Part shown: positions 19,579-51,436 of the stretch, in pieces
Numbering within the stretch: position 1 is the first letter of the stretch
Layout of the letters: each line of letters starts with the position of its first letter
Source of the DNA: Macrostomum lignano
Taxonomy: Eukaryota
Reading direction: 5' to 3'
Length of the DNA stretch: 64,000 bases
Assembly (NCBI GenBank): GCA_002269645.1
Contig: NIVC01002647.1
Location: 89,147 to 153,146, forward strand
Position numbers and translations under genes: made by a program
The notes under the pieces: model-generated
Seen by the model: only the letters and a program-made list of their open reading frames with translations
What the model was told of the DNA's origin: nothing
Databases searched by the model: none

Positions 19579-19609
19579 ATTGTTGTTCATGCAAACAAAT
19601 TCCGCACAC

Positions 19610-20034: not shown

Positions 20035-20242
20035 CTGAGGAGGACGGGATTGCAACTGTAGAATTGGGGATTTTCTGTTGGGAGTTGGGAGTTAAGCTTG
20101 ACACTTTAGAGATTCTTGTCACGGTAACGTTTTCAACGGGGAATCGACAGAGTCCTATGCAGGTCAGCAAAAAGGAAGGAAGAGAATCATCTCTACATGA
20201 GGTGGGAGACGTGTTAATGAGGCAAAAGTAATTGAGCTTCAC

Positions 20243-20917
20243 CTGCAGAGCGGTCAGCAGGCAGCTAAGCGCAATTATCAGCAGCCAGAAGTCCGGCCTG
20301 AACAGGCGCAGCAGCCAGACGGTGAGGTAGACAGGCGCGCACAGCAGCACTGCGATGACAGCCAGGGCCCGTGCGTGGCCACCATACGGCGCCGACTGTA
20401 CAGCGGCGCCGAGGTGCAGCAGCCTCGGGCCGGCGATCTCGTGCACCGAGTCCAGCAGCGAGGACACCAGAATGAAGGCTACAACGGTGACTAGGCTGGC
20501 CCATTGCGGAGTTCGCATTGTGTGCGGCAGGTTGGTTTGCACCGCCACCAACAGGAAGGTGAAGCCCTCCGCCCAGCCGCGCTGAAGGCCTCCGGCAGCG
20601 TCGCCAGCGGCAGCCGCTGCCGCTTGATTGGCGAAGCCTCCGCCGCCACCGCCGCCGCCGCCATTGAGGAAAAGTTTAGTGCATAAAAGTACAAACCATG
20701 AGGCGTGAGACACGGTCACGCACAGGCCGAGTATGCACAGCGGGCTGGAGCAGCTGTCGGACAGGGCGCCCAGCAGTACGATGTCCAAGCCTGTCGCGGA
20801 CGAAGATGCCGCCATCCAGTGCTGAATGAGGCGAAGACTGAAGTTGGATAGCCAGAAGAGTAGCAGCTGTCGGGTCATGTTGTAGTCCTGGAGTGGCATA
20901 AGGCTGCGGTTCAATGC
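20243..20917 (-). CDS. RNF145: RNF145-like exon (TRC8_N membrane region)
   Basis: CAG acceptor at 20918, CAG|GTGAAG donor at 20242, 225 codons. [44 protein letters not shown] matches RNF145 motifs. Confidence 0.9.
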
Positions 20918-20923
20918 CTGCGA

Positions 20924-24630: not shown

Positions 24631-27600
24631 TAGGGTGTCCAGTGAGAATTTTTTTTCTGAAATTTTTTGGTTTTGACTTATGTAACTTATAGACCTGGAT
24701 GTTATGAGTAAAATGACACTTCACTTTTTTAATTTGGTCAAGTAATAAAAAAGTTATGAGTATTTTTGTTTTAAAAAGAATGCGTTTTTTCCGTATTCTT
24801 AATACATTAGAAAGTGAAGCCAATTCCACGTCATTTTTACTTTTTTTCTTTAATTAAGTGTAAATAACTTTTTTGTTAGTTAAGCTACTTCTTTGACTTT
24901 GGTGTCAATTTTTAGGTAATTTAACTGTGCAATATAATTTGTAACTAAAAAAGTTCTCCTGCTTAGCAGTTTTTTGCTGCAGGATGTTCTGTTAATAAAA
25001 AAATGTTTTTTTATGCTGCCGGAGTCATACTTTTTTACTTTAAAGTCCCCTTAAAATACTTGTACTATACTTAGACAGACTTTCTTGGTGTCAAACTTTA
25101 GATTTCTTTTAGTTCTTTTAGGAAACATAAAAATTGTGCAGTTTAAGTATAGCTGTAGGTGAGGAGAATTTTTTTAAGGAAAATTTGTGAATAAGGGTTC
25201 AGGAAGGCAAACTGGGTGATAGTGTCTAGTAGACAGTTTTAAGTTAGAATGTCAGGGTTTTTACTTTTTTAACAAATACAACTGGATGTTATGAGTAAAA
25301 TGACATATTACTTTTAAAGATATGTTGAATAATAAAAAAGTTATAAGAATTTTTTTAAAAAAATTCATTGCACTGCTTCTCTCTCTGTATTGTTATAAAT
25401 GGGTAATGACATGTATATGGTATAAAAAATGTTTCATAACTTCATAAGTTTCTGTTTCCATATTTTCTGGCTTGTCCTTAATATATAAATATGACTAATA
25501 TTATGAGTATCTGGCTTTACTGTGAGTTTATGTCATTTATCATGTCAAAATATACTATTTCACTTTCAGATGCTATTATGTCATAATATAAATAGTAATT
25601 GTAAATTATGTCAGAACAATATACTCATACTCAATTTTATCGCTCCATTTCTAACCCTCACTCCAGTGCTTCTGCTAGCATTTAAATTGAATACTACATA
25701 ATATTTCATAAGAATTTATTTCTATGTCCAACTCAACGACACCCAAGACTGGTGCAGCCAGTAGCGCTGGGCCTGGCACCCCTATTGCTCGATCAAGGGG
25801 TCGACCCAGATTGCAGGTCACCAATGCCATGGCAATCGCTACTGTAGAGCAGCAGCAGCAGGGTGTTAGTTTCACTGAAAAATGGACTGCTTTGGCTGAC
25901 TGTCTTGAGCAACAAGACATGAGCCTAGCTGAGTTAAAGACCTTGCAGGGAGCCTTCAGTCGCATGTACGCAAAGGCAGAAGCCCTGAAGAAGAGCACGC
26001 ATGGTGCTGGTAGAGATGAAGGCAGAGCTGCCTACCAGCAGTTCTTGGAGAGTAAATTTGTACCTCCTGCCACGCGTGGCCGTGAGGCTGCAGATGCAGC
26101 TACCACTAGGCCTGCGGATGCACCTGCCACGCCTGCTGGCGCACCTGCCACGCCTGCTGGCGCACCTGCCACGCCTGCTGGCGCACCTGCCACGCCTGCT
26201 GGCGCACCTGCCACGCCTGGTCGCGTCCAGGCAGCTGCCAGTGCCCTGTCACCAGAAGAGCAGCGCGGTCAGGAGGATGGGCTTCATGCAGCACTGCGTG
26301 AGGTAAGCCTTCTAGAGTGAGGAGTGAGGCTGTATCTCGCATTGTCTATTGAAATGAGTTTAAACTTTGAACAGGTACCCTTCGACTTGTCAGGTAGTAA
26401 GATAGTTTTTTTTTACTTTACTGTTGCAAAAAGAAAGCCTTAATTATGTCTTGTCCTGACACAACTTTCCGGGTAACGCAAGGGACTGAAATCTGGAACT
26501 TTATTTTATCCCCCTTTCACACAGGCACGATATCGTCTGACTCTATCCGAGGCAAGGGTCAGGCGGCTTATATTTCGCCTCTCAAGACGGCCATCGATGA
26601 AGGTATGGCAGCAGCGCGTCAGACGCCTCCAGCGGCGGATCCGAGACGCCCGCCGACAATATCGGTACCAGGCCAGGATGCTGCTGGATGTGCGTGCGAA
26701 TCTATTGCTGGAGAAGCGCCAGTCGGCCATTCGCATGGACGCGGAGGCCAAACGTCAGATCGAAGCCCTACGGTCTGAAGTACGGCAGGCGCATCATTTG
26801 CTGGCTGAAGCCAACAGCAAGGTGAGACGAACTGTAAAGTGAAAAAGGGTAGGAAAGTATTAAATTGCTGGTGTGTTTGTTCTTAAGAAGCTGCGCTCAT
26901 CGGAGATGTCTGGCGCACGGGCTTGGATAATGGGATTTGACCTTATGGTAGACGCATAATCAGACACGAACTCAATTGGTCTGGAACCATCATTTCACAC
27001 TTCTACAAAACAGGTTGAACAGCTGACAGGCCAGGTGGCAGCCGGCCGTCTGCTGCAGACAATGGAGTCACGACCTGGAGGTGGCGTGCAGTACACGAAC
27101 GATGTCGTTCGGGCGTGCGTCAGTCTCGTGCTCGATTGCCACGTCCCTTTCCGTTACGTCAGCTCCGCCATTCGAAAGGTCGTGGAGCAGTTGTGCGGGA
27201 TGCAGGTGGAGAACCTGCCGTCCGTGTCGCACATAAGTGCCGTGTCCTACAGCGTCGGCGGGAGTCTCGCTAAGGCCAGCGCCATGGAGAAGCTCCTGGT
27301 GGCCGCGCAGGACGACAAGGCGCTGACGCTGATGACCGACGCCACCAGTAAACGAGGAGAGCACTGGTCGGATTGGCAGGTACAACTATACTTTTTCTCA
27401 TTTGCATAAACTTTTGCTTCGAATGATGGCATGTCGATATCGAAACAGACAGAAGAATACTTACACCAAACTGCAATCCCCCTCATCACACAGATTTCCA
27501 CTGGCGGGAACGAGCAGGTCACGCTGGCTCTTCGGCCTGTAGAGGGTGGTACAGCGGAGATGTACGCCCGTGACATGGACGCCTCCGTCGATGAGCTAGT

Positions 27601-30600
27601 GGAGTCCTTCTGCGACGTCACTAAGCCCGACGTCAGTGTTGAAGACAGGGTCCGGTTGAAGCGGGAGCTCTTCATCCGGATCAACTTTCTCATGACGGAC
27701 CGCCACGTCGTTAACAAGTGCCTGTTGGTGAGTGTGACGCGGAGGGTTAGGTCTAGCAGTGGTTCAGTGTTGTTTCGAGAAATTTACGGCAGTCATTTTT
27801 TCTTACATTTCGTATAGGTGCTTCTTAACGAGATGCGCGACACCTTCGCGAGGCAGGCCGGTGAGGACCAGCCGGAGAAGGTCACGGCCCTTTTCTGTGG
27901 CATGCATGCCATCGTTAATCTGGCTGCCGCGGCTGAAAGCGGTCTCAAAGCCTGGGAGGCCTGCGTGTCATCGCAGCCACTCGGTGCCGCTGCGCTACCC
28001 GGTTTCTGGACTTCAAAGGCCGAGTCCGGTAGGATTTTCCATATGGCGTGCAGGCTAGGGTTACAACTTAAGTTGATGTTGAAAGCTTCTGCACTGTTTG
28101 ATTACTTTCATTGTAAAAAATGTGGTACTAACAGGTTAGAATAATTGACTAAGTCAATAAATATGCAGTCACACGGAGTACTTCCTTTCAATTCAAGTAC
28201 TCCTAATCGATTCTATACCAGTATACGACCCTAACCATGTCCACAGGCACTCAGCGTACCATCAGGACGGTCTGCAAGGCGTTTCATCGGCTCGGGAACG
28301 AGCAGTGCGGCGTCGCAGTTCCGTACGAAACGTACTTACAGTCGCAGGGCGCAAAGCCGTTCCAGATGGAGGACTTCCGCGGCAACCGGGCGTACGTCAT
28401 CTTCCCGAATGGAGGTCACGTTTTCCGCCAGCGGGAGCTCCTGCTGACTTTCCTGACGGAGTACCCGTGCAGCAACCGCCTGCTGCTAGCCGTGCAAGCA
28501 GATCTCGCCTCGAATGTCCTGCTGAGTGGCTGTCGAGCGCTTGGTGTCATCGACATGCTGGTGATTCGGCCATTGTGGATGCTGAACCGGCAGTCAACAG
28601 TCCGAATTCTGGACATGAACCAGCGCTACGAGCAACTCTGCGACTGGCTGGAGGAGCTGGCCACGGCAGACGGCTTCCGCTTTTCGGGCGACCAGAGCGG
28701 CCCATTTCCTGACCTTGCTGGGGCAGTGCTAGCGCCCGATGACGCTGGCGACGTTTGGAGTGCGTTGACGGCCGATGCGTCGCAGCTGGACAACGATCTA
28801 CTGAGCCAGGCGCTGCAGGTCACCGCTGCATACATGCTCGTGCTGCTTCGTCGTGAGGTCTGCGACCACTTGCCCGGCGGTGCCCTGCGCAATTTGTCCG
28901 ACGAGCAGCGCCGTCTGACAGCGGATGCGCCGAAAGACAACGTCGCTCCCGAGCGCAATTTTGCTGTGCTGGACAGCACGGTGACTTGCAAGCCGCACAT
29001 GCGCCCATTGGCTCGAGAGGCGTACGTCCTCTTTCAGCAGAACGCTACGGAGCAGTGGCTGCATCAAAAAACTCGAGATGAGCAGGAGGCCATGCTTTCT
29101 CGGGCTCGGAAGATTTCCGGGAAAGTTGAGGCACGGGCAAAGGCGACGAAACAGGCGATCGACAAGGCACGGCAGCAGTTGCAGCAGGCGCGCATCGAGG
29201 CAGTGCACCGCAAGAGAGTCGCCAAGGACTGCTCCCTCCGTGACCACATGCGCGCTGTTCACGAGTTCGGCGGCGTCTGGATTACCGTCAGCGACATGAC
29301 GGAGGCGCTGCAGCAGCTCCCATCTGGACGTCACGAGCAAGCTGTGACAGCGCAGCTGCGTCTGCAGAAAGCCATGAGTAAGACAGCGTAGTGTTGGTTT
29401 TAAGTAGGAAGTAAATTTTAAAATTGGTCTTTAGCAAAGAAAGTTTCACGAAAATTTTGCTGAAAGTTGACTTTCAAACGTTCAGGAATCAGGTAATTTG
29501 GAGAATTCATTATCACCTACAAACTTACTTCCATGCAGAGCCTACTCTGCCAAGGGACCTGGCTGCCCTGCTCAACCTGTTGCAAGCCGGTGTAAGACGC
29601 AGCCTGCCCGCCCTGACTGCCAACCTGCGACAAGTAATTGCCCATCTGGAGGCTGAAAAGGCAGCAGTTGCCGTCGCGGTCGACACCCAAGGCAACACCA
29701 ACATCCGGCCCTGTAATGAGCGGGCAGAGCTTGTCCGCTCTGCTGTCACCAAGAAGCTGGAGGCCCGTCAGGTGGCAGCTACGACTGGCCAGCAGCACCA
29801 AGGTGGCGCAGCAGGCAGCGGGCGTGGTGCTAGCGCGTCAGGCAGTCGGGCACGCGGTCGGGGTCGCGGACGTGGTCAGGGGTGTGGCCGTGGCCAGGGT
29901 AGAGCTTCGAGCAGGCAAAAGCGAGCGCCGCTGCCGACTTCTGATTCGGAGTCAGACTCTGCCGAGGCCATTGCAGAGCAGCAGGCTGCTGCTATTCCCC
30001 CCTCGCTGAGCAACCTCCCACAGCTGGAAGGCCGACGTGTGGAAGTTTTGTTTGGCTACACCGACGGCGAGGTCTGGGAGCAGGGTGTCGTTGTCCGCCG
30101 TGTTCCGGGTACCAATGCAGACATCCTTGAGCATAAGTTCAAGGTTGTGTTTGACGACCATGGCAGCACAACCTTTGAATATAACTTTTACGAAGACTAT
30201 TTGAAGGGCGACCTTCATGTCCTGTCAGACGACGAGTAGCTCAACAGAGTTACTGAACTTCTTGAATATTGAGTCTAAACTGAAATGATCAAGTGAGAGT
30301 GGATAATGTAGTATAGGTAATTACAATTCCTTAACTAAAAGCAACATTACTATCATATAAGTTGTTTAGATCAACAGCTCATATACATCAATTTCAATTT
30401 GGGTCAAAGCAGAGTCAAATAGTCCCCATTAAAAGCTGCGAAATGCCCAGTTTTGTTTTTTCCCTATCTCCGCAGTGTATTTCCAAGAAACGTTCTACAG
30501 TCTATGGCCAATGGTGCCTTTGCGTTTTGGCCTACATAGAAATCCTTTCTAGACCTGATTTGGGGTGCGTTAGGCTACATTTTAAGCAAAGGAAACATTC

Positions 30601-34200: not shown

Positions 34201-36673
34201 GACAGCATAACCTAAAGCTCCATGAGCTCAGTTTTCAAGCATTGAAGAAGCAGAAGCAGTCATCTTGGATCCAGGGATCAGGAAGAGTGTTGCATGTCCG
34301 ACATGTGCTGTTTCCGTGGCAAAAGGTGATGGAGCAAATTAATCAACACTTACTATCTAGCTCGTATTAAGACTAAAAAACTGAGGCAAGCTGGGATTAA
34401 ACCAAAGAAAATTTTTTACTATACTTTTTTACCATATACTTTTACTATACTTCTATAGTATAGTAGAGAGGTACTCTATTTAAATGCAGTAAGAAGTGAA
34501 ACAAATTTATATATTTAATTATTAAATTAAATTAATTCAAGGTAAATAACTAATTTAACCAATTTATTAGGAGTATTTATTATTATAATAAATTGATTTT
34601 TATACCTTACACGAAATAAGCTCTACATTCATTTCTTAGCTTGGGGCCCATCTGTATAAGGTCAGTTTCTTCAAAATGCTGATTAATTAATTAAGGCCTG
34701 TTGTCTTTACTTAAATTTGTAAGGGCATCTTAGAAGTTAATATTACTATATAATACATGTATAATAGTATTACTATATTATAGTAATATAGTTGCAATTT
34801 TAATGACTATTGAATAAGTTTAAATGCTTCCCCTATTGACTCTAAATATATGGTATTTTTCCCTTCAGAAAAAATTAGCATAGAATGACTTGATGAAAAC
34901 AAAAAAAATCATTTTGAGATACACATTTGCTGATCATTCAGGACAAATTTCAAGGTCCAGTTTTGCACATGTTTCTCTGTAGCTTGGTTACAAGGATTTT
35001 AATAAAAATATAATAAATATGTCCAATGAACTAACTGATACATAGCCAAATTGAAGTATTTTCAAAAACAAAAAAATCATTTGCTCAGTTTACTTTATGG
35101 ATATCTTTGTAAAATTTCAGCTCAAAAGGTGCTCCATGGAGAATGCTAGTGTGGTTACAGGATATTTATTTTGTGCTTCAAAGTAGGAGTTTATTGCGAT
35201 GCATGGTTGCTTTTAATTATTTTTATCAACAATAGTGCTCTATTTCATAACAATTTTTTACAAAAAGATAATAAGACATGTTTTTCTAATTATCTGCATC
35301 AAAATGTATCATTTTAAGCACGCATTCTAGACGTCAGCCGAAAAATACATTTTGTGAGACGCAAAGAGGCTATCCCACCGGAAATGCTAGGCGTACAGTT
35401 AAAGCGTCTATAAAATCATTTGTAGTGCAGTTTATTGAGCTTTAAAAAATTCTTAAATTAAATTTATATAAGCTTTCATTTTAAATGTAATATAGCAAGG
35501 TTTCAACACAACAGCAACTTTTTTTAGCTACAGACATCTTGTAGTATCAAAAATTAACATCGGTGAAATGATTGAATTTGAATTTTTTCATCGCTAATTA
35601 TCGCTTAATACCGCCAGATGATTAAAAATACTTATGTATGATAAAGTTCAACCCAAAAATTATCTTTATTGACAGATAAAAGTGTCCTATTATTTTCAAT
35701 ATGGCAGTAACAATAGTAAATGTTCGGAAAATTGTTAAAATTTTTGCTCCTTCTAGAATTTGCGAACGACCCGCCTGCACTTAGCCAGCTGCTACTTTTT
35801 TACACTTAATTTTTTTCTAAAGGGTGTTTGAAATTTGAATATCGTCATTCAGTGGCCATCTTAAGTGGATTGAAATCACTACAGTAGTAAACACACCACA
35901 GTATATACATACTATAAATTATGCGTTGGAATGTACTTCTTCAGTTTAAATTCTCAATTAGTAAGTAAACCGCATTTGATTGCTGCTTGTATTGTATCTG
36001 CTTGGGATCAGACTATTGTAGTCACAAAATTGTGGCTAGATTTTTATATATATATCGATAATCACTATATATATTATTCTATGACATTTGCTTATGTATT
36101 TGCCACTTTAGTTAAATTATTTGATTTTCTTACAAAGCTCATTGACCTAGCTTAGTCTAATGTTCTTATAATTGTATGAAATCAGGCCTAGGGCCATGCA
36201 TTTTTAGACCTGTTATTTTTATAACTTACAGTAATCATATAAATAGTAAAAGTCGTTTTTTACAGTCAACACTTGTAACAATTACCCAAGCCAAGTATAT
36301 AAATTGAATAATAACTTGCTATATTGCTATAAGGACTCTACTAAAACTACCTAAAATACTAATTATTATAGGCCCTAGTTGTTTTGCTAACAAACATTTT
36401 TAGGACAGTCATTTTGGTAAGTAATTAGCCAAGTCATTTTGGCAAAGATAAGGATCTTTGGATCACCATATTAGATTAGAAAGTTTTGCACAAATTTTGG
36501 CACATGTTTTTACTTTAAAATTTTTCAAAAGAATTTCAAAAGTTTTGGCACTTAAATTTTGTAAGAAAATTTTTATAGTTTTTCCATGTGCAAGTTGCGC
36601 AAGTTTACTAAAGATATGAAATTTTATGATAAAGACCCTATATCTTTATATTTATATATTTGAGTATTCTAAG

Positions 36674-37418
36674 TGTGACAGGCCTTTTGGCTCTGTCTTT
36701 CTAAACTTCTAACTATTAGTGTTTATTAAATATCCTACGAGCTGCCACCAAAGTTGTTACAGGCCTTTCACTTCTTACTTTATCAATTTTAATCCCACCG
36801 ATTTGCCAACTACAGTTATCCTGATTATACTTGCTTTTACTCCCTAACTATTTCTTAGAATTTCATTTAAATATTTCTGGGTAGCGTTCTTAGTAGCGTT
36901 TCTGGTAGCTTATGGCTTGCTTTCTGGTAGCGTTCTAGTAGCTTATGGCCTGAGCGGTCTAGTACTGGTATATGTATTAGTGTATAGTCCTAATCGGGCG
37001 TTCACCGAGACTAGAGGGTCACGGCGCCTCTCTTGGTATATCTCCAAGAATTAGTCCCAATTCCCTTCTCTTAGCAAATTTCTTAGAATCGTTTCACAGG
37101 TTTTGCAAATAAATAAGTCGCTATTTAGCTCAAAGACTTTGAAATGGTTTAGATTGAACTGCTTATTCTGTTCGCAATTATTTGCTCACGAGTATAAGAC
37201 AGTTAGAGTATATTTGTCGCGAAACCGCTCCTATATATAGTGATTTTCCCCACATACGATTAAAACAAAAAAAATAATTCTCCAATTTATTTCGCGCATT
37301 AAAACAAACTATTATTTGGCGTTCGCGTAGATTCAGTTTCTAAGAAAGATTCGAATATACAGTTATTACATTGAAAGAACATTCGAGTATACTATGATAA
37401 AGGCATAGCACTAGTACA
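36674..37418 (-). repeat. 3' LTR of L1 (745 bp)
   Basis: Near-identical to 40950-41705. Confidence 0.95.
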
Positions 37419-37430
37419 ACTTTCCTCCTC
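37419..37430 (-). other. Polypurine tract of L1
   Basis: GAGGAGGAAAGT on the minus strand abutting the 3' LTR. Confidence 0.8.
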
Positions 37431-37704
37431 TATATATCAAATTTTGAACGAAATACTATATTGTATGTATACAGTGAAAAATTGATATCGTAGGAAAATG
37501 TAGGTGAAAAGGTGCAAAGCAAGGTGCAGAAAACACAATTCAGTGCTAAAACAATTGGTGCATAAAATGGTTGTGATAGAACTATTATGTAGGTAAACCA
37601 TTAAAGTGAGAACTATTATGGAAGCAAAACGAACTATTATAAAAGTATTATAAAAGGCAAAATTGTTATTAAAGGCAACGCAAAAGTTAGTTCACCTCAA
37701 TAGT

Positions 37705-38579
37705 TCAGATAAACATGCAGGGCTCCGGGAGGTCGCGATAGTAGGGCCAGCCGACTTGAGCGAAAAACCATCGGTACTCTTCGTCGAGGACCGTCAGCGC
37801 TGGCGGCGGGTTGGCTCTTATAGCTCGCTGGAGGCGATAGGCGACGTCCTGGAGAACAGCGACAGCTTCCTGGTAACTGAATTGATCCCTTAGAAACTTC
37901 AGGTGTGTCCAAATTTGTGAGCATTGGGGTAGCGCTGTCGGCTGTCGGATCGGTGGTACGCTACTTTCAGTGCGTATTGCTCAATGTGGAAGCGTAGCTT
38001 TTCCACCTCTGCTCCGCGAGTCTCCACAAGTTCTCGGACGATGCGATGAAAATCTCTCTGCGAATTCGATTGCTGCTGGCTCGGCTGTAGTGCTGATGGC
38101 TGGCTAGACTGCTGCGCTGATTGCAGGCTCGGCTGCAACGCTGACTGCTGCGCTGATTGCAGGCTCGGCTGCGACGCTGGCTGCTGAGCTGGCGGTGTCG
38201 CAGCTGTCGATTTCTTCTGCCGTGGTGCCGGGGTCTTTCTCGATGATGGGGCAGCTGGCGGTGACACCAACTGCTGCGTTCGGCTTGATGTCGACGATCC
38301 TGGCGTGGCCTTGACAACATAGGAGCGCACGGGCGCAGCTGCCTGTGCTGCCACCAGGGCGGCGCGCTTCTGCTCGGGGCCTTCGACCCTCATTTGGCGG
38401 CAAGGCGATGAAGCTGGCGATGATGTTCTTGGCCGTTTGCTGGATACACCAGGCGCCTTTGGACGTGTTGCACATCGAAGCGGTGCCTCATTTTCGTCGG
38501 TGTTGGGCGCTGGCTGGGGCTCCATATCGTCTGACAGATTGCCAATTAACTCGTCCAAGATATCAATAGAGTTGTTCAT
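37705..38579 (-). CDS. Accessory ORF of L1, unknown function (226 aa as given; ~291 aa if a 1-nt frameshift near 37910 is corrected)
   Basis: ATG at 38579. The frame stops at 37899, but the -1 frame continues WTHLKFLRDQFSYQEAVAVLQDVAYRLQRAIRANPPPALTVLDEEYRWFFAQVGWPYYRDLPEPCMFI* to 37705. Confidence 0.6.
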
Positions 38580-38662
38580 TTTGATTTCTCTGCGAATGGC
38601 TCTTAGAATAGAAAGGAAGCTAGCAGTGAGCTATGGGATCTGTGGGGCCTGCAGGGTGCTCG

Positions 38663-38730
38663 TATTTATAGGCTGGCGGGCCGAAAAACTGGACCTCTTC
38701 GAAGCACTCCCCTCGCGCGTGGGGCGGGGC
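38663..38730 (-). promoter_or_regulatory. Internal Pol II-type promoter candidate (GC box plus TATA) for the L1 accessory ORF
   Basis: GGGGCGGGGC at 38721-38730; TATAAATA on the minus strand at 38670-38663, 84 nt upstream of the ATG. Confidence 0.55.
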
Positions 38731-38979
38731 ATGCCAGATTTGACAGATTTGACAACTAAATTTTTATGGATTTTCTATTTCTTTTTATAACTTTTTTATT
38801 TTTTGATAGATTTTCTTGAGTAAAGTATCAAATTAAAGATCGCATTTTGTAGATTAATATGGTATTTACAGATTCGCTCTATGTACAGCATGTCAAATTT
38901 TATAAGCAGATAAGTAATTTTAATACGGAATTTTAACTATTTAACACTGTTTCTTATGGGAAATTGCTTACGTCATGAT

Positions 38980-39462
38980 TTAAGGTGCTAAATATTTCGC
39001 GTAGCGCCTTCGGGGCACAAATCCTGTCGCGCCTTCTCTTTCTCTCCTTCGCTGAGTCATCCTAAAGTTATACCTATTCTCTGGCTGAACTCGTTCCTCC
39101 TCTAACTCTAATGCTCCTTCTTCTTCTTCTGATGGCTCATCTGAGTCAGTCGCTCTCTCTGTATTCTCACTGTTCAATTCTTCATTTCCTTCGTTTTCAC
39201 TCTGCGAATTCGGATCTGCGAATACTCTCCATTGAATTCTGTTTTCTTCGTCTGAGCTTTCCTCCTCTAAAATTTGAACTTCTGGAATTCTATTTTCTTT
39301 TTGTCTATGGCAAATTCTTTTCTTCGGCTTCGGCTGTTCCTTCTTCTTAGTTGACACTGGTGCTGGTTTTAAATTATCATTATTAATTTCTTCTGGTAAA
39401 TCAATTTCGGATTTCGGCACTGGAGTCAGATTATTACTGTTTTTCTTCGAACAATTTTGCAA
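38980..39462 (-). CDS. Acidic low-complexity ORF, possibly a relic of a Gypsy pol C-terminal tail
   Basis: Open frame rich in E/S, ending YNFRMTQRRR..PRRRY as in integrase tails (inference); TTG start only. Confidence 0.35.
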   Translation of the reverse strand: MQNCSKKNSNNLTPVPKSEIDLPEEINNDNLKPAPVSTKKKEQPKPKKRICHRQKENRIPEVQILEEESSDEENRIQWRVFADPNSQSENEGNEELNSENTERATDSDEPSEEEEGALELEEERVQPENRYNFRMTQRRREREGATGFVPRRRYAKYLAP

Positions 39463-40269
39463 ATTCTCACAGCTTCTCTTCGAAATCTCATCTTCATTTC
39501 ATCTCATCTCAACTCAACAACTTCTCGACTCAATATCTCAACTCGACCCTGACCTCTCGAAAGCTTCTCTGCTGAACTCATGCCAGCTACAGCTCTACTG
39601 TCACGGGTCCTACAACTCTTAACAAATTCTCAAATCTCGAATCTCCTTCCGCTATCTCAGTTTGGCCTCGTCAGTAGAATCATAGAAATTCTGTATTAAT
39701 CTGCTCTTTAGGCCTTACTGCCCTTCCTTTCCTGCATGGCCTGACTCTCTGAACCTTTTTTGGCTCTTCTGAAAGCGTCATCGGCCTCTTCTTTCTGCCT
39801 TTGGCCAATCCGCAATTGGTCAGTATGCGTAGCTGTCCGCGCGTCATGCCAATCTCTGCAATCCAATCTTTTCGACAATTCTCTTCGCACAATTCTGCAC
39901 AGTTCTCTCAGCATCAACTTCTCGTCAACTTCTCTGAGTAAAATAATCTTCCTTCAATGTTTTCAGTCCGAAATTGCAGTTCCCTGGCTTTCCTAAATAA
40001 GTTTCTTAGTAAAACGGCCCTTTTAAGGTCAAACGGCCCTTTTAAGGGTCACCTTCCTAAAATTTAATTATTTTATTTCTTTTAGACAGCTTATTTAATC
40101 AGTTGCCTTGCAACATGCCAACAAAATACCTCTTAATCAAATGTTTTTGGGTTTTTCTGAATTTTTTATTCGTTTTTATATTTATGCATATATATTTGAA
40201 ACATATTTACAGATTTGCTTTACAGACACTTTTAATTTGCTGATTCGCTTGAGTTCGCTCACTTTCTGA

Positions 40270-40848
40270 TTATGGCGGCTTCTGCTGGGCGTACCGATTG
40301 AAGTTGATTCGGCACTGGTGTCCTGCTTGAGGCCTAATGGGTCCTGGCTGGTTGCAGAAGAAGCAGTGACCAGGTGTCGGCTCTGGCCTGATTCCACTGA
40401 ATCTGTTCAGGCGGCGCGGTCTTGGCACTGACTGCTGCTGCTGCCCTGTCTTTGGTTCTAGGCTAATGTTCGTTAGCACGAAGGTCAAGGTCATTAGACA
40501 CTCTACTAATGCATCAATTCCCTCTTTTCGGTTCTGCTGCTTCGGCTCAAATTCTTCGATTATTCGTCGCCTAATTTCCTGATACTGACTCTGCTCTTTT
40601 CTGTGACTGATTCGGCGTTTCAGTCCCTCTGGGATGTTTAGATTAGCAAAGAGAGCTTCCTTCTGTTTCTCGCCTGTAATCCCTTGGATTCTGCACTGCT
40701 GCTCAAACGTGTTCATCCACTGCCTAATGTTCTGACCAGGTGTGAACTTTTCTACTTGCACTTCAGCCTCCTTCGATCCTAACTTGAGATGTTTCCTCAG
40801 TTCCTCTGCCAGCATGGCGATGGCATCATTAGCCTGATTCTGATTCAT
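40270..40848 (-). CDS. Gag-like ORF of L1 (truncated or degenerate)
   Basis: Follows the PBS. VEKFTPGQNIRQWMNTFEQQCRIQGIT is a retrotransposon-gag-like N-terminus; a zinc-knuckle remnant CFFCNQPG is present. Confidence 0.65.
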   Translation of the reverse strand: MNQNQANDAIAMLAEELRKHLKLGSKEAEVQVEKFTPGQNIRQWMNTFEQQCRIQGITGEKQKEALFANLNIPEGLKRRISHRKEQSQYQEIRRRIIEEFEPKQQNRKEGIDALVECLMTLTFVLTNISLEPKTGQQQQSVPRPRRLNRFSGIRPEPTPGHCFFCNQPGPIRPQAGHQCRINFNRYAQQKPP

Positions 40849-40929
40849 CTTTTCTCTACGAAAAACTTTTCAAATTATTCTTCGGAATTCTTCTGAATCT
40901 AGCTTTAAGAGTTCGCGCCGTTTCTCTAA

Positions 40930-40947
40930 TCCTTATCGCTGCCACCA
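40930..40947 (-). other. Primer-binding site of L1 (tRNA-Leu-like)
   Basis: TGGTGGCAGCG 2 nt after the 5' LTR, complementary to the recalled tRNA-Leu 3' end (..CCGCTGCCACCA). Confidence 0.8.
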
Positions 40948-40949
40948 GC

Positions 40950-41705
40950 TGTGACAGGCCTTTTGGCTCTGTCTTTCTAAACTTCTAACTATTAGTGTTT
41001 ATTAAATATCCTACGAGCTGCCACCAAAGTTGTTACAGGCCTTTCACTTCTTACTTTATCAATTTTAATCCCACCGATTTGCCAACTACAGTTATCCTGA
41101 TTATACTTGCTTTTACTCCCTAACTATTTCTTAGAATTTCATTTAAATATTTCTGGGTAGCGTTCTTAGTAGCGTTCTTAGTAGCGTTTCTGGTAGCTTA
41201 TGGCTTGCTTTCTGGTAGCGTTCTAGTAGCTTATGGCCTGAGCGGTCTAGTACTGGTATATGTATTAGTGTATAGTCCTAATCGGGCGTTCACCGAGACT
41301 AGAGGGTCACGGCGCCTCTCTTGGTATATCTCCAAGAATTAGTCCCAATTCCCTTCTCTTAGCAAATTTCTTAGAATCGTTTCACAGGTTTTGCAAATAA
41401 ATAAGTCGCTATTTAGCTCAAAGACTTTGAAATGGTTTAGATTGAACTGCTTATTCTGTTCGCAATTATTTGCTTACGAGTATAAGACAGTTAGAGTATA
41501 TTTGTCGCGAAACCGCTCCTATATATAGTGATTTTCCCCACATACGATTAAAACAAAAAAATAATTCTCCAATTTATTTCGCGCATTAAAACAAACTATT
41601 ATTTGGCGTTCGCGTAGATTCAGTTTCTAAGAAAGATTCGAATATACAGTTATTACATTGAAAGAACATTCGAGTATACTATGATAAAGGCATAGCACTA
41701 GTACA
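40950..41705 (-). repeat. 5' LTR of L1 (756 bp)
   Basis: Differs from the 3' LTR by an 11-bp tandem unit and at least one substitution. Confidence 0.95.
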
Positions 41706-41884
41706 TAAGTTAAGTTCAAAATAAACAATAATAAAACAAAATGTTAGTTTTAATTTCTTTTCTAAATAATATATTAATGTTTTGATAGAATTTTTTAAAT
41801 ATACAAATATCCCTATTAGGACAAGTGATATTTTCGTAGATAGTGTCTAGTATACTTTGAAAAGTATTAATGCACTTAGTATAT

Positions 41885-42944
41885 TGAGGTGGGGGTGGAA
41901 AAAAAGTTTTCTTGGAACGGTTGGTTTTGAAGTTTGCTGACATCAGTGAGGTAGAGTGGATTCCATGTTTGGATTGCCACTGACGTTGAGTTTGCACAAA
42001 TAAAACCGGAAAAATCGCGCAGTTGAATCTCAATGGGAAAACTTTCTCCTTTTACTCCAACTGCCAGGTTCTCAAGTCCAGGGAAAGGGTAGTCGTAATC
42101 CTAGCAGAGCGTTTGTGTAGCAGCCCAGTCGTTCAAAGCAATAAAACACCAGAGAATTTTGACACTGTAAACTAATGCGTTGAGTTGCTGAGTTTGTTAC
42201 CTTCAGTAGGGTAGTTGCTGCTACCACCATAATTTATGTATTATAGAACGAATAAGTCTCAGAGCTTTCTTTGAGATGAGAACTTTAGTTATTTTATGCC
42301 CCACGGGCAAATGACTCAATAAGATACTATGGCTTATAGATCAATGAATAAATATGGATTCAAAGTTTATTAAGTGTTGTTACTTATTTATTGATGAGCA
42401 GGCTAAAATTCTTTGATGTTATTTTTGGACAAAGATTAAATTTGCAGGCGGCACCTAGGTGCTAAATGAAATAGAAATTAGATACGCTGAGTTTTAAGGA
42501 GCCAAACAGGCAAAAAATGGCAAAAGATGGAAACAATGAAAAGAAAAAAAAGAAAAGAACAGGAAGGGATGAACATTTCATGAAAATAGAAGGGGTTTAT
42601 ATAGCAGAGAAAACAGGTCCACATATAGGAGCATCTAGTGGACAAAACATTAGACATACACAGTTTACAAATTGGGTCGCATGCAAAAACCATTGGGAGA
42701 AACGTGTTTCAACAAAACTTCCAGCACAAGGGCATGCATGTGCACTGCATGGACTAACTGTTGGAAAAACCGTCCAACATTGCCATATACAAAGTCCCAT
42801 ACAAAAGTCCCATATTGCCACATACAAAGTCCAAACCAAAGAAAATAAAATTTAATTTTTGTGCACTGCGCGGACAGTCTTAGTGGAAACAGTTTTAGTT
42901 AGTCATCAATACTTGTTCAATCAAAGTGGCATCCGCCTGTCACA
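41885..42944 (-). repeat. 3' LTR of L2 (1060 bp)
   Basis: Homologous to 61446-62455, with many transitions and a ~50-bp indel. Confidence 0.92.
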
Positions 42945-43583
42945 TGCATGAGGTGGCAGAGAGAATGATAAGAAACTCAGCAGCAGCCACCGGCCTCGGG
43001 CAGCAGAAATGCAGCCTCTGCAGTTGGCCGGGCAAGAGGCGTGGCTGGCTCCGTCAGGCTGAGTTGGTGGGTCGGGTTGCTTGTTTGTGGCTACAAGGCC
43101 AGTGCTCAAGGGCCAGCCATAAATGTGGACCTGGCTGTCCACGATGCTCAAGCATTCTAGATATTTGTCCAGGGCTGCATTCCAATATGCTTTTAAACGG
43201 GGCAGCCACCCATTCCGCAGCAGGCCTGCCTCCATATAAGCGAGGGTAAGCAGCATGGCCAGGGCTAGCCGGGCTCTAGCCGGTCCTTCATGTAGGCCCT
43301 CCTTGGCGAGGGCAAGCTGTTGATCTAGGATGGCCTTGGTGATCTCGGGTGGCATCATACCGCAGAAGAAATGCCACTGTACATCAATTTGGATTCAGCC
43401 CTTTCGGGTGGCCTGGCGCACGGCCTCTTCTATAGCTTGCTGGAGGCATACACGGGCAGGGGCTTCACCGGTGGCCGTGGCGGTAAGGGCGCGCATGGTG
43501 ATGACTTCCTCCAGGTGCAACCATGGCGCTCAGGCGAGAGTGGCGCTCATGTCAGGGGCTCGACTGCGCACAGAAGGTTCCAT
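42921..43583 (-). pseudogene. Accessory ORF of L2 in the env position, two in-frame TGA stops
   Basis: ATG at 43583 is in frame with the 43358 ORF. TGA at 43530-32 and 43395-97. TATATAAA at 43775-43768 upstream. Confidence 0.5.
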
Positions 43584-44028
43584 GGCGTTGGTCAATAGTT
43601 GGACAGAAAATAAATAAATAGAATAAATAAATAAATAGATATGTACAAAGATATTCACAGGAATAAGTCAGAGGGGTCACAGCTGCTAAATAAAAATTTG
43701 CCAATTAGGATTTACGATAATCGCAGGGAAAATTTACAGTATGCAATGAACAGAGCCACTTGGCTGCTTTATATACTTGGAAAAGCTGCCCAATCGATGA
43801 ATAAAGGAGATTCACGCGCTGGAACAAGGCACCAGTCACCGCCCCTCATGCACTCTATGGCGGACGCACATGGAGGTGGGGTGGGTGACCAATGGAGGAA
43901 TAATAAAACAGATAGCTAGCCGCGGCAGAGGGGCTAACTTAGAATGAAATGAGGCGCCTTAAACGGCTCACATAAAATGAAGAGGGCAGTTAAGAAAGGC
44001 TGGTTAATGCATAAACAATAGCTAAAAT

Positions 44029-47000
44029 GGGTCATTCCAGATAAGGACGGTCGTAACATGTCACTGTATTTGGTCATATTTTTTCTAATAGGCGAAAGTA
44101 TTTGAAACAAAAAACATGTGGTCTTGAAAGCACTTCGTATGGTCTTTCTTTTGCAAAAACAGTTGGCACAAATTGTTGTTTTATTAGGAGAATAATTAAC
44201 AAAACATTCACATCCCGGTCGTAACCAGTGAAAAACGTAGATCACGTTTTTAAAAAGTAAACTAAAAGTTTACTCAACATATTCATTGGAACCACAAGCG
44301 AGTGACAAAAATATGCTACAAAGAAATGAAACAACAGGTAAGCAATGTGATTCGCTTCTATTTTAGTACTTTTGATAGTTTAAAGTCAGTTTGTTAAAAT
44401 CCCGGTCGTAACATCCCGGTCGTAACACTTTTGTCTCCCCGCAGTCACACTCGGGAATTATCAACAAAGTGGCGGTGAGTCAAGTAATATCGTTCTTTTC
44501 TTGAAAGGTACATGTCTTATGATCGTTTGAAATGATAGTTAAACATTTGGTAAAAACTATTAAAACTTGTTTTGGACTTCAAGGTCAACGATAGCATTTT
44601 TTCAACATCTTTTATGACCTACAAAGTGACATTGAGTTTGATGGTACCCAAACACGCTAGATTTTGCATGCACTATTATAACACTGACAAATTAAATTTT
44701 CCCATTTCAGATCAGCAAAAACGTCGAAGTAAAAGCAGTAAAGTGAACACAATAAACATGGATGCAGAACCTGGAACCCAGAAAAGTAACATCCGGGTTC
44801 CAGGTTCTGCATCCATGTTTATTGTGTGGCAGTTGCTGTTGTTGCCCATCACTCAAAGTTGAATTTGAAGTGGCCACGGGCATCCAAGGGCACAGGGGGA
44901 TCCAACAGCTTCTGGATGTCAGCCAGTGGGTAGTAAATACAGTCCTTGGACTTTGGCCAGGCGTAGTTCGTGTTGCCGCTTTTCACCATCACATTCACTT
45001 TGTATTCAAACACCCCCTCAGTGTCGTCCAGCTGCCGGATCTTCACAACCTGGCCAGGGAAAACCTCGCCCTCATAGTCGACCAGGACCCACCGGCCCAC
45101 AGCTAGCTCAGCTGCGATGGGGTCAAGACTGGCACTTGGAGCCTCAGCGGACTCTTGGCTCATGCCAGTGAGCAGCCTGCCTGCTGGAACCGGAGTACTG
45201 GCAGCTGCAGGGACCCAGGAAGGCCTTGGCGGCGGAGCACTTGAGACTGGCGCTCGCACAGCAACTTCACTGTCAGTGTCCAGGCACCAGAAGTGGTCAC
45301 GCTGGATGCCCTTGACCTGTTTTAATTGAGATAAATATATATATATATTTATAGTATTTTGTTTTCTGCGTTGTACACATGTACTTTATTTCATTTTCAA
45401 AGATGGGCTGTGATTTCAATGTTCTTAGTTTTTTCTGTTTTATAAATAATTGCCGCATGCACTTAAGTTTATTTTCTTCTTGAGTGCGCCTAAGTAAAAA
45501 AATACAATTTAATCAATGCTGACATTACCGCAGGTGCATCCAGGAGCTGAGACTCGAGGCTGGAGAACTGAGCCTGGATCGTCTCGCTGGCAATGAGCAC
45601 AGTCTCAATGCTGCTGTCCTTCACAGCGTGAACGAAGTCCTGCGCGCTGTGAATGAAGAGCTGACGGGCCTTCACCTTGGTCCAGGCCAGCCGCTTCAGA
45701 ACGCCACCGACGCCGTCAATGGCGCCCTTGCCATGGAAAGTGGCAAAAAAATTCCACGTGATGCGCTTGACGCCCGGGTTCTCGGTCAGGAGGATGGCCA
45801 GCAGCTTCATCATGAAACGGTTCTTGAACTGTGAAGCTGGGCCATCACTCCAGAAGTGGACCACCTTGGGCTGCCAAGACTCACAGAACTTCTGGGAAGG
45901 AAAAGCAAGGGAGAAAGGGATGGGGATTGAGACAGAGAGACAGAGAGAGAGAGAGAATGGACTGGGACAAATGGAATTCCTGTAAAAAGTACATAACTAT
46001 GCCTTACCTGCATCAGGTGCCGCAGGAAAGTTGAAATGGCCTCCTTGGAATGATGAAGGTGGTCGCTGACGATGGCCATCATCTTGCTGCCACCTGGCCA
46101 GTAAGCAGCAACAGTGAAAAGTGTTACCTGCGCCTGATTCCAGTAGGCGCTTTGGGCCATGTCCTGCTGGGAGCACGTGTAATTCTCGCTGAAATCGAAG
46201 TGCAGCAGGAGCTCTCCGTCGGCCAGCGCGTCCTTCTGGTTGCGAAAGAAGCTGGCCTGCACCTGCTTCGTCTGGTGGTGAAGGACGAAAGCAGGCAGCT
46301 GCTCAACCAGCATCTTGAACGTGTCGGCCACGGTGAGCTGCACTGGCTGCTGCTGCACGCGGCCGTCCGCCCCGAAATCCCACTGGTGAAAGCGGACCAC
46401 GTGCTCCTTCTCCTCATCAGTTGGTGACACCAGGCGGTGGTTGTCACCTGAAGCACAGCGCTGGCATTGGCCATTGTTGCAATCCAGAGTCGCCGGGTTG
46501 CAGAGGATGAATTCGCCTACCCAGCGCGACGAGTAGGACGGCATGCCAGTGGCACCAGCCAGGGCACTGCAGAGACTGTTTTAATAGAATAATTTGAAAT
46601 GGGTGGCAGTTTGTTAAGAAGTAATATTTAAGTATATGTAACTTAGTACATCTGTCATAATTATGTCGAACTACCTTTTGAAGTTCTCGTGCAGCTTGCA
46701 GCAGCAGGCCTCCAGCGGTGTCTTGGAAAATGTCAGGATGTGACGTGGCCGCAGCTCGCAAAACTTCGACAGCGAGAGCTTGTGCTCTACATGCTCGTGG
46801 ATGAACAGGTGGTGCAGCTCCTTCATGCCGGCCACCAGGTAGCGCTTCTGGATCTGCTGACCATTGACTTTGACGTACTCCTTCCGCCCAGGAGTCCAGC
46901 GGGAAACGTCTTCGCGATCAAAAAAGGCAGCCACAGCATCGATGGTCTCGAATGGAATCCGCTCCCGGGAGATCTTCGGGGGTCAACCAGCTGCACGCCA

Positions 47001-48134
47001 AGGTTTTTGGCGAGCTGGCGAACGACTACGCGCTGGTGATCTAGTGATCTTGGCAGACCCTTCCAGGCGCTAGAGTGAAAGAAAGAAAGGGGAATGTTCT
47101 ACAAAAAACATCTAGATACACATGTCACACATTGTTACAACCTACAAACATAACTACCTAAAGGTGTCAAATTCAAATGCCAACTTACCGGTTCACAGCA
47201 CGATTGAGTGTTTTGCTGCTGCTGTAGGTGGTGCTCTCAAGTGACTCAGCCTCCTGCTGCTGCTGTTCCACCAGTTCACGCCGCCTCTGCCGCATGGCTT
47301 GCATCCGAGCTAGAGCTTGCTTCCGCTGCTTCTCAATCTTTGCAGGGTCCTTCTTCGCCTCACTCCTCCTATCCCGACTCCTCTTCTTCTCCTTCTCACG
47401 CAACTCGTCTCCCTTCCGAATCCTATAATCACGCTTGACTTCTTTTGATGGCTTTACCATAATGAATTCAAGTTAGAAAGTCACTTGGCTGTAAGAAAAA
47501 TAACACACGGTCAGTATTTTGAATGAGGGAATAAAAATCAACATGAAAAAACAAATGGTATCATTGTGTTACGACCATGTTACGACCAGGATATCCCGGT
47601 CGTAACCTAACTTTACACATAAAATAGAGTACAAAATGCATATCGAACTGTGTCAATACTTCTGTATCACACCAATATACATGTGTTTCAAATGAAAACC
47701 ATTCCCGATGTTAATTTTTTCAAAGAGACAGTCACCAAAAAAACTTTTCAACTTTCTATATCCCGGTCGTAACACATGAATTACATCACAATAAACTGTT
47801 TCATACTATCTTTCAAGCTATGTTTAAACTGCTAAAAACGTTTTTTTTTACTTTCATATACTGAAACATTAGTTATATGCCAGAAAACGACTTCTATAGT
47901 TAGTAACTATTAAATTGCAAAGCTTAAAACTTTATACCTATCAGCGTACCTATTCAGAATGTATGCATTACATAGACTTTGGAGTAGAAAAAAAGGAACA
48001 AAAATGCCATATCTTCATTAAAGTTCAATAAAAACATAAAATATAGACTCTCACTAAGCACTTTAAGCAAAGTTGGTGCTTCTACATCAGTTTTAATTTT
48101 TTTCCCATTGTGTCCTTTTCTCGTGGAATGACCC
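44029..48134 (-). mobile_element. Sola2-like DNA transposon A (4106 bp), nested in L2
   Basis: 11-bp TIR GGGTCATTCCA / TGGAATGACCC; AAT on both flanks; subterminal GGTCGTAAC repeats; encodes a transposase. Confidence 0.8.
44849..47460 (-). CDS. Spliced Sola2-like transposase (~688 aa, one 1-nt frameshift at 46978-46982)
   Basis: Exons 47460-47189, 47069-46675, 46575-46008, 45891-45529, 45316-44849, all GT-AG. Motifs HFDFSENY, WSDGPASQFKN, HGKGAIDGVGGVLKR. C-terminal Tudor-like domain. Confidence 0.78.
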
Positions 48135-48582: not shown

Positions 48583-49900
48583 CGAGGGGTGATCAAAAAT
48601 TTCTGCAAGTGACCTCACAACTCAGTGCTACAGCAGCCGAGGCGTCTAATCGGAGTCACATTCCCTCAAAGTACTTTCCACCACTATCCATGCACTGTTG
48701 CATGCGTGCGCACCATGTCTGAAAGCAGTCATGGTACTCCGAAGTTGGTATACCCTGTAGAGCTGAATGTACCGCTTGGGCAAGGTCTTGCATGCGTGAA
48801 AGTGGCCTCCCAGAAATGACGGATTTGATCCTTGGGAACAGCCAAAAGTCGCACGATGCTAGGTCTAGAGAGTAGGGTGGATGGGGCAGCAGCCAGACCC
48901 CCTGCTGCTCCAGGTATGCCATGGTTGAGGCCACTCTGTGCGGTGCCGCATTGTCATGGTGCAGCAGGAGTCGAGGTCCATGCCTGGTTCGCACACGTTC
49001 CTGCCGCTCCTGCAGCACGCCTGGCAGAACAGTGTCTGTGTAGTACCTGGAAGTCACTGTGGCACCCGCTGGAAGGAAGTTTACCGATAGAACACCCTGA
49101 GAGTTGAAAAAATGGTGAACATCCACTTCCAACTACGGAATCCGGTCTTCAGCACCTCAGGCCTTGGCTCATCTTCTGCCAGCCAGACCATGTTGGACTG
49201 CTTATCCTTCATGGTAAAAGAAGGAGATCCAACATTCGTCTCCTGTGATGACATCCGACAGTCGTCGTGGGCCGTGGGGCTCAAACATGTGCACCTATAA
49301 GCAACAGATGTGCACCCTCTCTGCTTGCTGCTCCGGAGTGAGAAGATGGGGTACCCACCGAGCGCAGGTCTTTGTGCGGCCTAGTTGCTCATGCATGATG
49401 TTATGAGCACTTCTATAGCTGACACCAAGCTCATAGGCAAGGAATCTCAGCATAATGCTCCAATCCTCACGAATTATTGCATCGGCATGGGCCACGACAT
49501 CTTCGGTCACGGATGTCCAGGGTCGGCCAGACCTCGGTTCATCGTTGAAGCTGTCCCAGCCTTCCAAGAAATGGCGCAGCCAGCGGGCAACCATGTCAAA
49601 TGATGGAGCAGAGTCAGCTAAAACATTCACCAGATCGGTGTGAATCTCAGTCCCTTTGCAACCAAGTTGCATGCGCATAAAGATATAGAAGCGAACACTG
49701 TCTTTTGATGGTTCCATCAGCTACTGAAAACACATGGAAAATATATGTCTGTGAAATTTTACTGGAGCACATTTGGAAGCCAAAAATGCATATAAATATA
49801 GCTAACAGATATAGCCGCATATGTGTAAGTTTTTGGCTTTTCCCGATTTTATAACTAAAAGCTATAACAAAAGGTTGCAGAACTTTTTGATCAACCCTCG
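48583..49900 (-). mobile_element. Mariner (DD34D) element, 1318 bp, defective
   Basis: 26-bp TIRs CGAGGG[G/T]TGATCAAAAA[T/G]TTCTGCAA with 2 mismatches; TA TSD on both sides. Confidence 0.93.
48656..49717 (-). pseudogene. Mariner transposase pseudogene
   Basis: Motifs WVPHLL, TGDECWI, HHDNAAPH, YSLDLASCDFWLF; stop near 49295 and frameshift near 49216. Confidence 0.9.
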
Positions 49901-50753: not shown

Positions 50754-51436
50754 ATATGAGATAAGAAATATACTAACCTGAATCTTTTATTTTGCTATTT
50801 CAACTTACCATATATTTTGTCATCTATTGCCATGAATAAAGAAATAAAAAACTGCACACTTAGCCTTTAAAGTCGTTTTCTTATGCTAGAGAAATGATAA
50901 CTGCACAGTGTATGAAACAATGCATATAGCATTTAAAGACAATAGTATAGGTGGATAATGTTTACTTGGCATAAGCACTAAAATGCAGTAGTTCGAAAAA
51001 ATTGACAAAATTATTGAAAATTATTTTAAATTATTTTAAATTATTAAATTATAAGAAAAAGCTAATGGCAATTGACACTAGATACAGCCCAGATCATATG
51101 GCGCTATACAATTCTTCAATGCGAGCATACTCGGTGTCTGGCAGGCAAAAAATCGGTCGGCGAACTGTGCTGACTGGCACTAACTGCGGTGGCGTCGAGC
51201 ACACAGCCAGCACAGAGCCCGCCTCGATCCACTAGGTGTCTTTTTTTCCACATGAATCTGCAAAAGGAAGCATGACAAAAATGCATTAATAGCTTGGCAG
51301 CTGCTTTAAAGTTAAAGTACGTATATATTTCTGATCCAACCTAAAAGATACCTGGCAGGACTTCCAATGTTTAAACCAAAATATATTAATCTGATATGAA
51401 TATGACAAACTTAAATCTGTTAATTTACCAATTTGG

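Follow-up and report, generated by a model that had tools for sequence, protein, structure and literature searches.

In the 64,000-nucleotide stretch of Macrostomum lignano DNA that was analysed (the window), a recently inserted LTR retrotransposon without detectable pol carries an accessory gene in its 3' interior. The sequence comparisons support a genuine protein-coding family that is not env-like and that has the layout of a nuclear regulator. The family itself is new, whereas the position that it occupies in the element is of a known kind. Tentatively, we propose that the gene encodes a nuclear regulator of the element itself, made from an internal promoter, that may raise the transcription of its element family. 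The parts of this proposal differ in strength. The gene probably belongs to the elements and is not a host gene that was picked up once. The protein is likely to be nuclear. Judged from motifs, it is moderately likely that transcription starts at an internal GC-box/TATA promoter and ends at the poly(A) site of the 3' LTR. As read, the gene in the window is a broken copy, probably from a Ty3/Gypsy-type lineage of Macrostomum, and it is carried by a recently inserted non-autonomous element.

The element that carries the gene (element 1) is a 5.0-kb LTR element at 36674-41705 on the minus strand, which was delimited by self-comparison of the window. Its features outside the accessory gene are as follows.

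40950..41705, minus strand: 5' LTR with TG...CA ends (blastn match of 98.15% to the 3' LTR)
40930..40947, minus strand: primer-binding-site-like (PBS-like) tract, 2 nt past the 5' LTR
40273..40869, minus strand: shortened gag relic, 199 codons stop to stop (gag match to element 2)
38983..39498, minus strand: acidic low-complexity frame of 172 codons where the pol tail would lie (putative pol origin; pol-like match only at E 0.36)
37420..37431, minus strand: polypurine tract (PPT) before the 3' LTR
36674..37418, minus strand: 3' LTR (self-comparison)
41706..41709 (5' copy) and 36670-36673 (3' copy), minus strand: 4-bp target-site duplication (flanking letters)

Element 1 exhibits the features of an LTR retrotransposon, namely paired direct LTRs, TG...CA ends, a target-site duplication, a PBS-like tract, putatively of the tRNA-Leu type, and a PPT. 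The LTR pair differs by one substitution in 744 columns and by indels of 1 and 12 nt. As its LTRs are near-identical, element 1 was inserted very recently. Self-comparison gave no second copy of it within the window.

The interior of element 1 is only 3.5 kb long, and coding capacity for PR, RT, RH and IN was not detected in it. None of the five interior stretches from the gag/pol region has a Pfam match to RT, integrase or protease, and the best pol-like match between the interior and the gag-pol of an older element in the window (element 2, described below) has the E value listed above (tblastx). The gag relic has a degenerate zinc-knuckle-like end (by eye). Its N-terminal part matches the N-terminus of the element 2 gag (36 aa, 28%, E 4.5e-4; tblastx), and it gave nothing above the cut-off in Pfam and nothing below E 0.6 among PDB sequences. 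A preliminary description of this DNA had placed the gene between gag/pol relics and a PPT, inside an LTR element that lacks pol. The LTRs, the 4-bp target duplication and the five stretches without a pol match bear out the element, and a purine tract is present 3' of the ORF at 37431-37420. The gag relic is backed by its N-terminal match, but the pol relic is not. Since no pol domain was detected, element 1 is classified as a non-autonomous LTR retrotransposon. It probably belongs to the Ty3/Gypsy superfamily; it has no RT of its own, and the link is made through the gag match to element 2, whose RT is nearest to the Ty3 RT in the PDB (E 1.4e-34), together with the 4-bp target-site duplication.

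Several minor observations were made on element 1. At the end of its LTR (41026-40938 and 36750-36674, minus strand), the LTR-end-plus-PBS-like sequence has an inner copy roughly 79 nt ahead of the true end, which would fit an enlargement of the LTR by tandem duplication of the U5/PBS junction. Two near-identical repeats of about 19 nt follow right after the gag relic (window 40005-40075), hairpin-like near 40030-40074. They match the Rfam Histone3 stem-loop on the plus strand with 27.8 bits, which is under the cut-off of 34. Folding in excess of shuffled sequences was found neither for the repeat near 40030-40074 (z -1.09, genomic strand) nor for the 3' UTR (z -0.63). The repeat pair might conceivably act as a cis packaging signal. 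A canonical heat-shock element is absent from the LTR and the interior, and the motifs of element 1 gave no match in the supplements of PMC12801592.

The accessory cassette is sense-oriented in the 3' interior of element 1. Its parts are as follows.

38721-38730, plus strand (reversed relative to the ORF): GC box GGGGCGGGGC, the sole perfect 10-mer in the 64-kb window
38670-38663, minus strand: TATA box TATAAATA of the putative internal promoter (motif)
38601..38632, minus strand: candidate acceptor (3' site) for splicing or trans-splicing, about 22 nt upstream of the ATG (branch-point-like pentamer by eye, pyrimidine tract, AG at 38603/38601)
37944..38579, minus strand: accessory ORF, first frame, with the acidic N-terminus, the motif block, the linker and the first two helices of the domain
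37936..37950, minus strand: frame-switch interval (tblastn of relatives), broken in this copy or in this assembly
37705..37935, minus strand: accessory ORF, second frame, with the remaining helical domain, a conserved aromatic C-terminal motif and the stop

The first 30 residues of the ORF contain 8 D/E and no K/R. A conserved motif block follows at about residues 30-90 and includes KRPR at residues 48-51 (38438). The linker (residues 91-173) consists of Q, S, P, A or T at 83% of its positions. The acidic N-terminus, the KRPR motif and the Q/S/P linker had all been named in the preliminary description and were found again here, as was the helical, aromatic-rich C-terminal domain, which is seen in the AlphaFold models and in the alignments (about 115 aa). 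The combination of an amphipathic acidic tip with a basic motif, an extended disordered linker and a compact helical domain is a nuclear-adaptor layout that is known from activators. The earlier view that the protein is not env-like also holds as far as a hydropathy scan goes. The N-terminus is acidic, and no TM-like stretch is found in any of the five sequences scanned, with a peak 19-residue hydropathy of 1.02 for the N-terminal piece from the window and 0.26-0.90 for the other four.

The domain is split by a frame break in the window. When the relatives described below are placed on element 1 with tblastn, the frame changes at 37950-37944, and the first frame continues out of register to a stop at 37901-37899. 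The break had been noticed before and is real, but its proposed cause, the loss of a single T in AAATTT(T)GG near 37910, is not upheld. Among the eight codons before the Trp codon at 37911, the downstream frame is identical to the three relatives at 6, 6 and 5 codons, against one of eight for each relative in the ATG frame. The lesion therefore lies upstream of the proposed site, by about 25-40 nt according to tblastn and the codon match. The break may be an assembly error, a post-insertion indel or an inherited change; because two indels already separate the LTRs, a third indel within 875 nt would come as no surprise. The product expected from this copy as read has 226 aa and lacks most of the domain, and the copy is probably non-functional.

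The C-terminal domain is predicted by AlphaFold to form five helices (pLDDT 83). Two AlphaFold models agree on the same five helices and on a disordered middle, and the model of a full-length relative has an extra short N-terminal helix at residues 59-70 that corresponds to the acidic segment. The domain is all-helical and has 1-2 Cys in about 115 aa. Its charge, counted as K+R against D+E, is 16/13, 14/14 and 11/7, thus neutral to slightly basic, and the domain is therefore no obvious nucleic-acid binder. No Pfam family was matched by the three ORF pieces, and none of the three relatives has a significant Pfam match; similarity to Gag or to nucleases is likewise absent from the Pfam results. 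The best NCBIfam match has an E value of 0.093, PHROGs gave none, and the best matches of the accessory protein among PDB sequences have E values of 0.67-1.6. Foldseek comparison of the AlphaFold model of the C-terminal domain, which the preliminary description had suggested as a check, gave 0 matches at E<=0.001 in the PDB and in BFVD. Neither DNA-binding nor activator domains were matched by fold, and nothing rose above helical-bundle noise.

The relatives of the accessory protein were identified with phmmer, using the downstream frame as the query against 1.84 billion representatives. Four matches were obtained at E<=0.001. In three of them (P0003, P0004 and P0005; E 2.5e-15 to 4e-11) the domain runs through without a break, and these are true relatives. 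P0003 is M. lignano BOX15_Mlig016073g1, P0004 is BOX15_Mlig008543g1, and P0005 is a Logan record. The fourth match, P0006, is a 924-aa repeat protein with four short matching stretches; it was judged spurious and dropped. Profile searches over longer proteins (211-2000 aa, 8000 candidates scored) and over proteins of near length returned the same three relatives only, and the 57-residue first half of the domain gave one candidate as a query and none at E<=1. The relatives have in common the N-terminal motif block, a KRP motif and a five-helix domain of about 115 aa (about 42-51% identity). P0005 has no acidic N-terminal helix.

Identity to the window ORF is 36/59 (P0003) and 23/53 (P0005) in the motif block, 19/56 (P0003) and 11/44 (P0005) in the linker, and 8/33 and 13/33 in the first part of the domain. 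It is 38/75 (P0003), 37/75 (P0004) and 32/76 (P0005) in the C-terminal part of the domain. Both the motif block and the C-terminal part are thus more conserved than the linker, a pattern that points to protein-level constraint on the family and has no bearing on selection in this particular copy. The M. lignano gene set was built from RNA-seq (PMC5730564), and both BOX15 ids (Mlig016073 and Mlig008543) are present in the Mlig_37v3 transcriptome table (PMC7336406, supplement); these relatives are therefore transcribed. Their label of "Non-Specific" expression is the default class (47,371 transcripts) and is uninformative on tissue.

Element 2 is an older Gypsy element that occupies 41885-62455 on the minus strand. 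It is 20.5 kb long and swollen by nested insertions. Its features are as follows.

62455-61446 and 42944-41885, minus strand: LTRs of element 2, with 48 substitutions in 1010 columns and a 4-bp target duplication
about 61400 to beyond 56000, minus strand: decayed gag-pol
42921..43845, minus strand: parallel cassette directly before the 3' LTR (motifs, ORF scan)
43845-43839 (GC box), reversed CCAAT, 43775 (TATA) and 43583 (ATG, strong Kozak), minus strand: parts of that cassette

The ORF of the parallel cassette is sense-oriented, GC-rich and helical-looking, and it contains two in-frame stops. The pieces that were scanned have no Pfam or PDB match. Homology of this ORF to the accessory domain was considered and rejected (hhalign probability 0.5% against the domain alignment). 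Both elements nevertheless exhibit the same GC-box/TATA/ORF layout, about 4 kb apart.

The preliminary description had given the accessory gene its own GC-box/TATA promoter. Its motifs are confirmed. The perfect GC box GGGGCGGGGC occurs once in 64 kb, at 38721-38730, in the orientation opposite to the ORF, and TATAAATA at 38670-38663 (minus strand) is followed 84 nt on by the ATG at 38579. Promoter and ORF together form a block of 56-58% GC between flanks of 24.5% upstream and 30% downstream, and the GC box marks its start. Of the 72 TATAWAWR sites that the window contains, the two at 38670 and 43775 alone are preceded by a GC hexamer at a distance of 5-120 nt, and both pairs sit before ORFs in the 3' interior of Gypsy elements. 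The promoter is plausible, but a window-wide null for such pairs has a mean of 0.32, and 2 are reached in 12 of 200 resamplings (p about 0.06). A local null gave the pair in 38 of 20000 cases, for a region picked after the fact. The recurrence of the layout in element 2 is the best evidence that the motifs may form a real promoter, and it is evidence of motifs only. The first AATAAA sites after the ORF stop lie in the 3' LTR, at 37291 and 36727. The LTR and the internal promoter of element 1 have no common word of at least 10 nt; the targets of the foamy-virus regulator Tas are likewise described as having little sequence in common (PMC7390438).

The result of the window-wide null and the structure of P0003 count against an internal start. 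The annotated ORF of P0003 starts 55 codons before the equivalent Met, and that transcript therefore begins upstream of the internal start. Residues 1-55 of P0003 were compared with the promoter and 5' UTR of the window gene; the score was reached by 41 of 2528 windows and 169 of 5000 shuffles, and in an ATG-anchored test by 17/300 and 13/297. At this borderline level, the 55 residues may represent translated promoter and 5' UTR, with the start codon in the database set too early.

It is well established that LTR elements can carry an extra ORF between pol and the 3' LTR, and the function of such ORFs is described as a standing open question (PMC7264820). The accessory gene resembles Grande gene23, Retand TRP28 and RIRE2 as an extra Gypsy ORF between pol and the 3' LTR. 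The maize Grande gene23, with which it further has in common an own promoter (putative here), a nuclear product (predicted here) and no known homologue, is antisense (PMC7264820), and Retand carries antisense TRP28 ORFs that are retained in non-autonomous copies too (PMC11963269). The plant ORFs thus differ from the accessory ORF, which is sense and from an animal, and TRP28 (PF04195) has no Pfam match in it. In foamy viruses, the small nuclear protein Tas (Bel1) is expressed independently of the LTR, from an internal sense promoter in the 3' region of the genome (PMC7390438). The likeness lies in a sense internal promoter (putative here) in the 3' part and in a small regulator. Unlike element 1, foamy viruses are vertebrate retroviruses and have this promoter within env, and Tas is not among the matches listed in the sequence, PDB-fold and viral-structure searches.

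Among invertebrate Ty3/Gypsy elements, Caenorhabditis elegans Cer1 likewise encodes a novel accessory protein, CERV, in which a basic NLS-like motif is present and folded domains are joined by flexible linkers (PMC10309623). It is described as a 517-aa protein, spliced from exons shared with gag, with a Cys-loop M domain and a GTPase-like G domain (PMC10309623), none of which was seen in the accessory protein. The closest precedent for the layout of element 1 is the bdelloid TelKA2n, a non-autonomous element in which ORF3 has survived the loss of most of pol and of the gag C-terminus (PMC5408684). Bdelloid ORF3s are env-like, GDSL esterases or DEDDy nucleases and are typically spliced (PMC5408684), whereas the accessory protein matches no enzyme. 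On these comparisons, the accessory ORF belongs to none of the env, TRP28 and CERV groups.

In our literature search, the sense, promoter-bearing arrangement was found described for foamy viruses and not for animal Gypsy elements. The search, whose coverage is incomplete, yielded no description of the accessory ORF family; Mlig016073 appears in no main text and Mlig008543 in no paper found. A search for the BOX15 ids in the supplements of PMC5730564, PMC7806878 and PMC12801592 gave no match, and the terms ORF, accessory and internal promoter are absent from the parts of the recent M. lignano LTR paper that were covered (PMC12801592).

The mechanism that we propose is as follows. Element 1 must have been copied by an autonomous partner. 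The transcript of an intact accessory gene would start near 38640 and end at the poly(A) site of the 3' LTR, and the internal promoter would allow the protein to be made while the LTR is quiet. The acidic N-terminal helix could then recruit co-activators, and the helical domain could dock on a chromatin protein or on the DNA or RNA of the element. The protein would thus be an adaptor that raises transcription of the family, either as an activator or by blunting silencing, comparable to the loop of internal promoter and Tas in foamy viruses or to maize Grande gene23. Against a regulator count the missing fold and family matches, the domain that is not basic, P0005 without the acidic helix, and the absence of a common word of at least 10 nt between the LTR and the internal promoter. 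The argument that the gene was kept and therefore selected is weak, because one internal deletion of pol leaves the 3' region intact and because this copy is broken.

Four other explanations were weighed against this proposal. The protein could be a Rev- or CERV-like factor that acts post-transcriptionally and exports or protects unspliced genomic RNA. Its own mRNA would then begin in the 5' LTR and be a subgenomic RNA produced by splicing, or by SL trans-splicing. The pyrimidine content before the AGs at 38603/38601 is 81-88%, against 50-75% for the other 8 of 10 AGs, so that an acceptor-like sequence stands 22 nt before the ATG, and donor-like GTRAG sites are found on the minus strand in the LTR near 41475-41478 and 41055, and also at 38972. 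(The 9-mer around the first GTRAG, at about 41478, is repeated at 38972, just past the 172-codon frame.) In addition, 38.8% of M. lignano genes are reported to be trans-spliced (PMC5730564), CERV is nuclear with a KRKK motif and a spliced mRNA (PMC10309623), and splicing is typical of the bdelloid ORF3s (PMC5408684). We nevertheless regard such a factor as unlikely: the donor and acceptor matches are short consensus matches without a null model, the GC-box/TATA pair would be superfluous, and the domain has neither an Arg-rich RNA-binding stretch nor a Cys cluster (1-2 Cys). Equally doubtful is a passenger, that is, a Macrostomum-specific intronless host gene or a cassette of another mobile element that was captured with its promoter, does not help the element and is decaying. 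The sharp GC boundaries that flank promoter and ORF, the annotation of the relatives as host genes, the break in a very young copy and the broken parallel ORF of element 2 would all fit. However, the family has four members with about 42-51% domain identity and none else among the 1.84 billion representatives, the same layout is found in a second, unrelated element, and both BOX15 ids are absent, among the rows listed, from the orthogroup tables of four Macrostomum species (PMC7336406, supplement). A captured host gene in particular is disfavoured, because no relative beyond the three proteins was found.

The remaining two explanations concern what the protein acts on. It could be a self-limiting or competing factor that dampens autonomous partners or rival families and so controls copy number. 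Roles of this kind have been raised for extra ORFs (PMC5408684), and a gene that interferes could be retained in a non-autonomous element just as well as one that helps. Yet the protein has no Gag or nuclease similarity, and such elements should be out-competed (PMC5408684), which makes this explanation quite improbable. Slightly less probable still is a decoy function, in which the domain would imitate the first repeat of cullins. Nuclear ubiquitin ligases that restrict the element would then have their substrate adaptors titrated away or redirected. Beyond the element-encoded nuclear regulator proposed here, a bolder generalisation, which we consider rather unlikely, is that Gypsy lineages of Macrostomum routinely carry unrelated, lineage-specific nuclear regulators with their own GC-box/TATA promoters in the 3' interior. 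The present family would then represent a new adaptor with five helices that counters silencing, perhaps by mimicry of a cullin repeat, and non-autonomous copies would spread it in trans. If true, such routine unrelated regulators would amount to a foamy-virus-like two-promoter circuit in animal retrotransposons, in a host rich in stem cells.

In the literature consulted, the extra ORFs of plants are antisense, and those of animals are env-like, code for enzymes or are spliced. An accessory gene that is sense, unlike env and equipped with a promoter, and whose product has a new folded domain and a probable nuclear role, would make the question of extra ORFs testable in an animal, and RNAi, transgenesis and LTR reporters are reported to work in M. 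lignano (PMC5730564, PMC12801592). The significance is limited in that accessory genes of this general kind are known, the family has few members, the copy in the window is broken and its function is a proposal. An unrelated second cassette only 4 kb off hints at a recurring strategy, and the case also suggests that transposon genes are to be found among the "orphan host genes" annotated in M. lignano.

The rest of the window is repeat-rich eukaryotic DNA with many minisatellites and transposon relics. Pieces of a TRC8/RNF139-like RING ligase gene are found at 19510-21007 (minus strand; Pfam TRC8_N, E 1.9e-19), between minisatellite arrays. A mariner-like transposase relic lies at 48659-49720 (minus strand), with a weak match to Pfam Transposase_1 (E 0.027). 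GC-rich, DNA-transposon-like clusters of ORFs in several frames occur at 44852-47500 and 51400-53900 (minus strand) and at 26400-30240 (plus strand), and the pieces scanned from them have no significant Pfam match. Positions 1-22959 of the window hold dense minisatellite arrays with periods of 4, 21-25, 29, 38, 44 and 46 and lengths of up to 4.5 kb. The 46-nt array at 5095-5968 has 43-nt inverted repeats on both sides.
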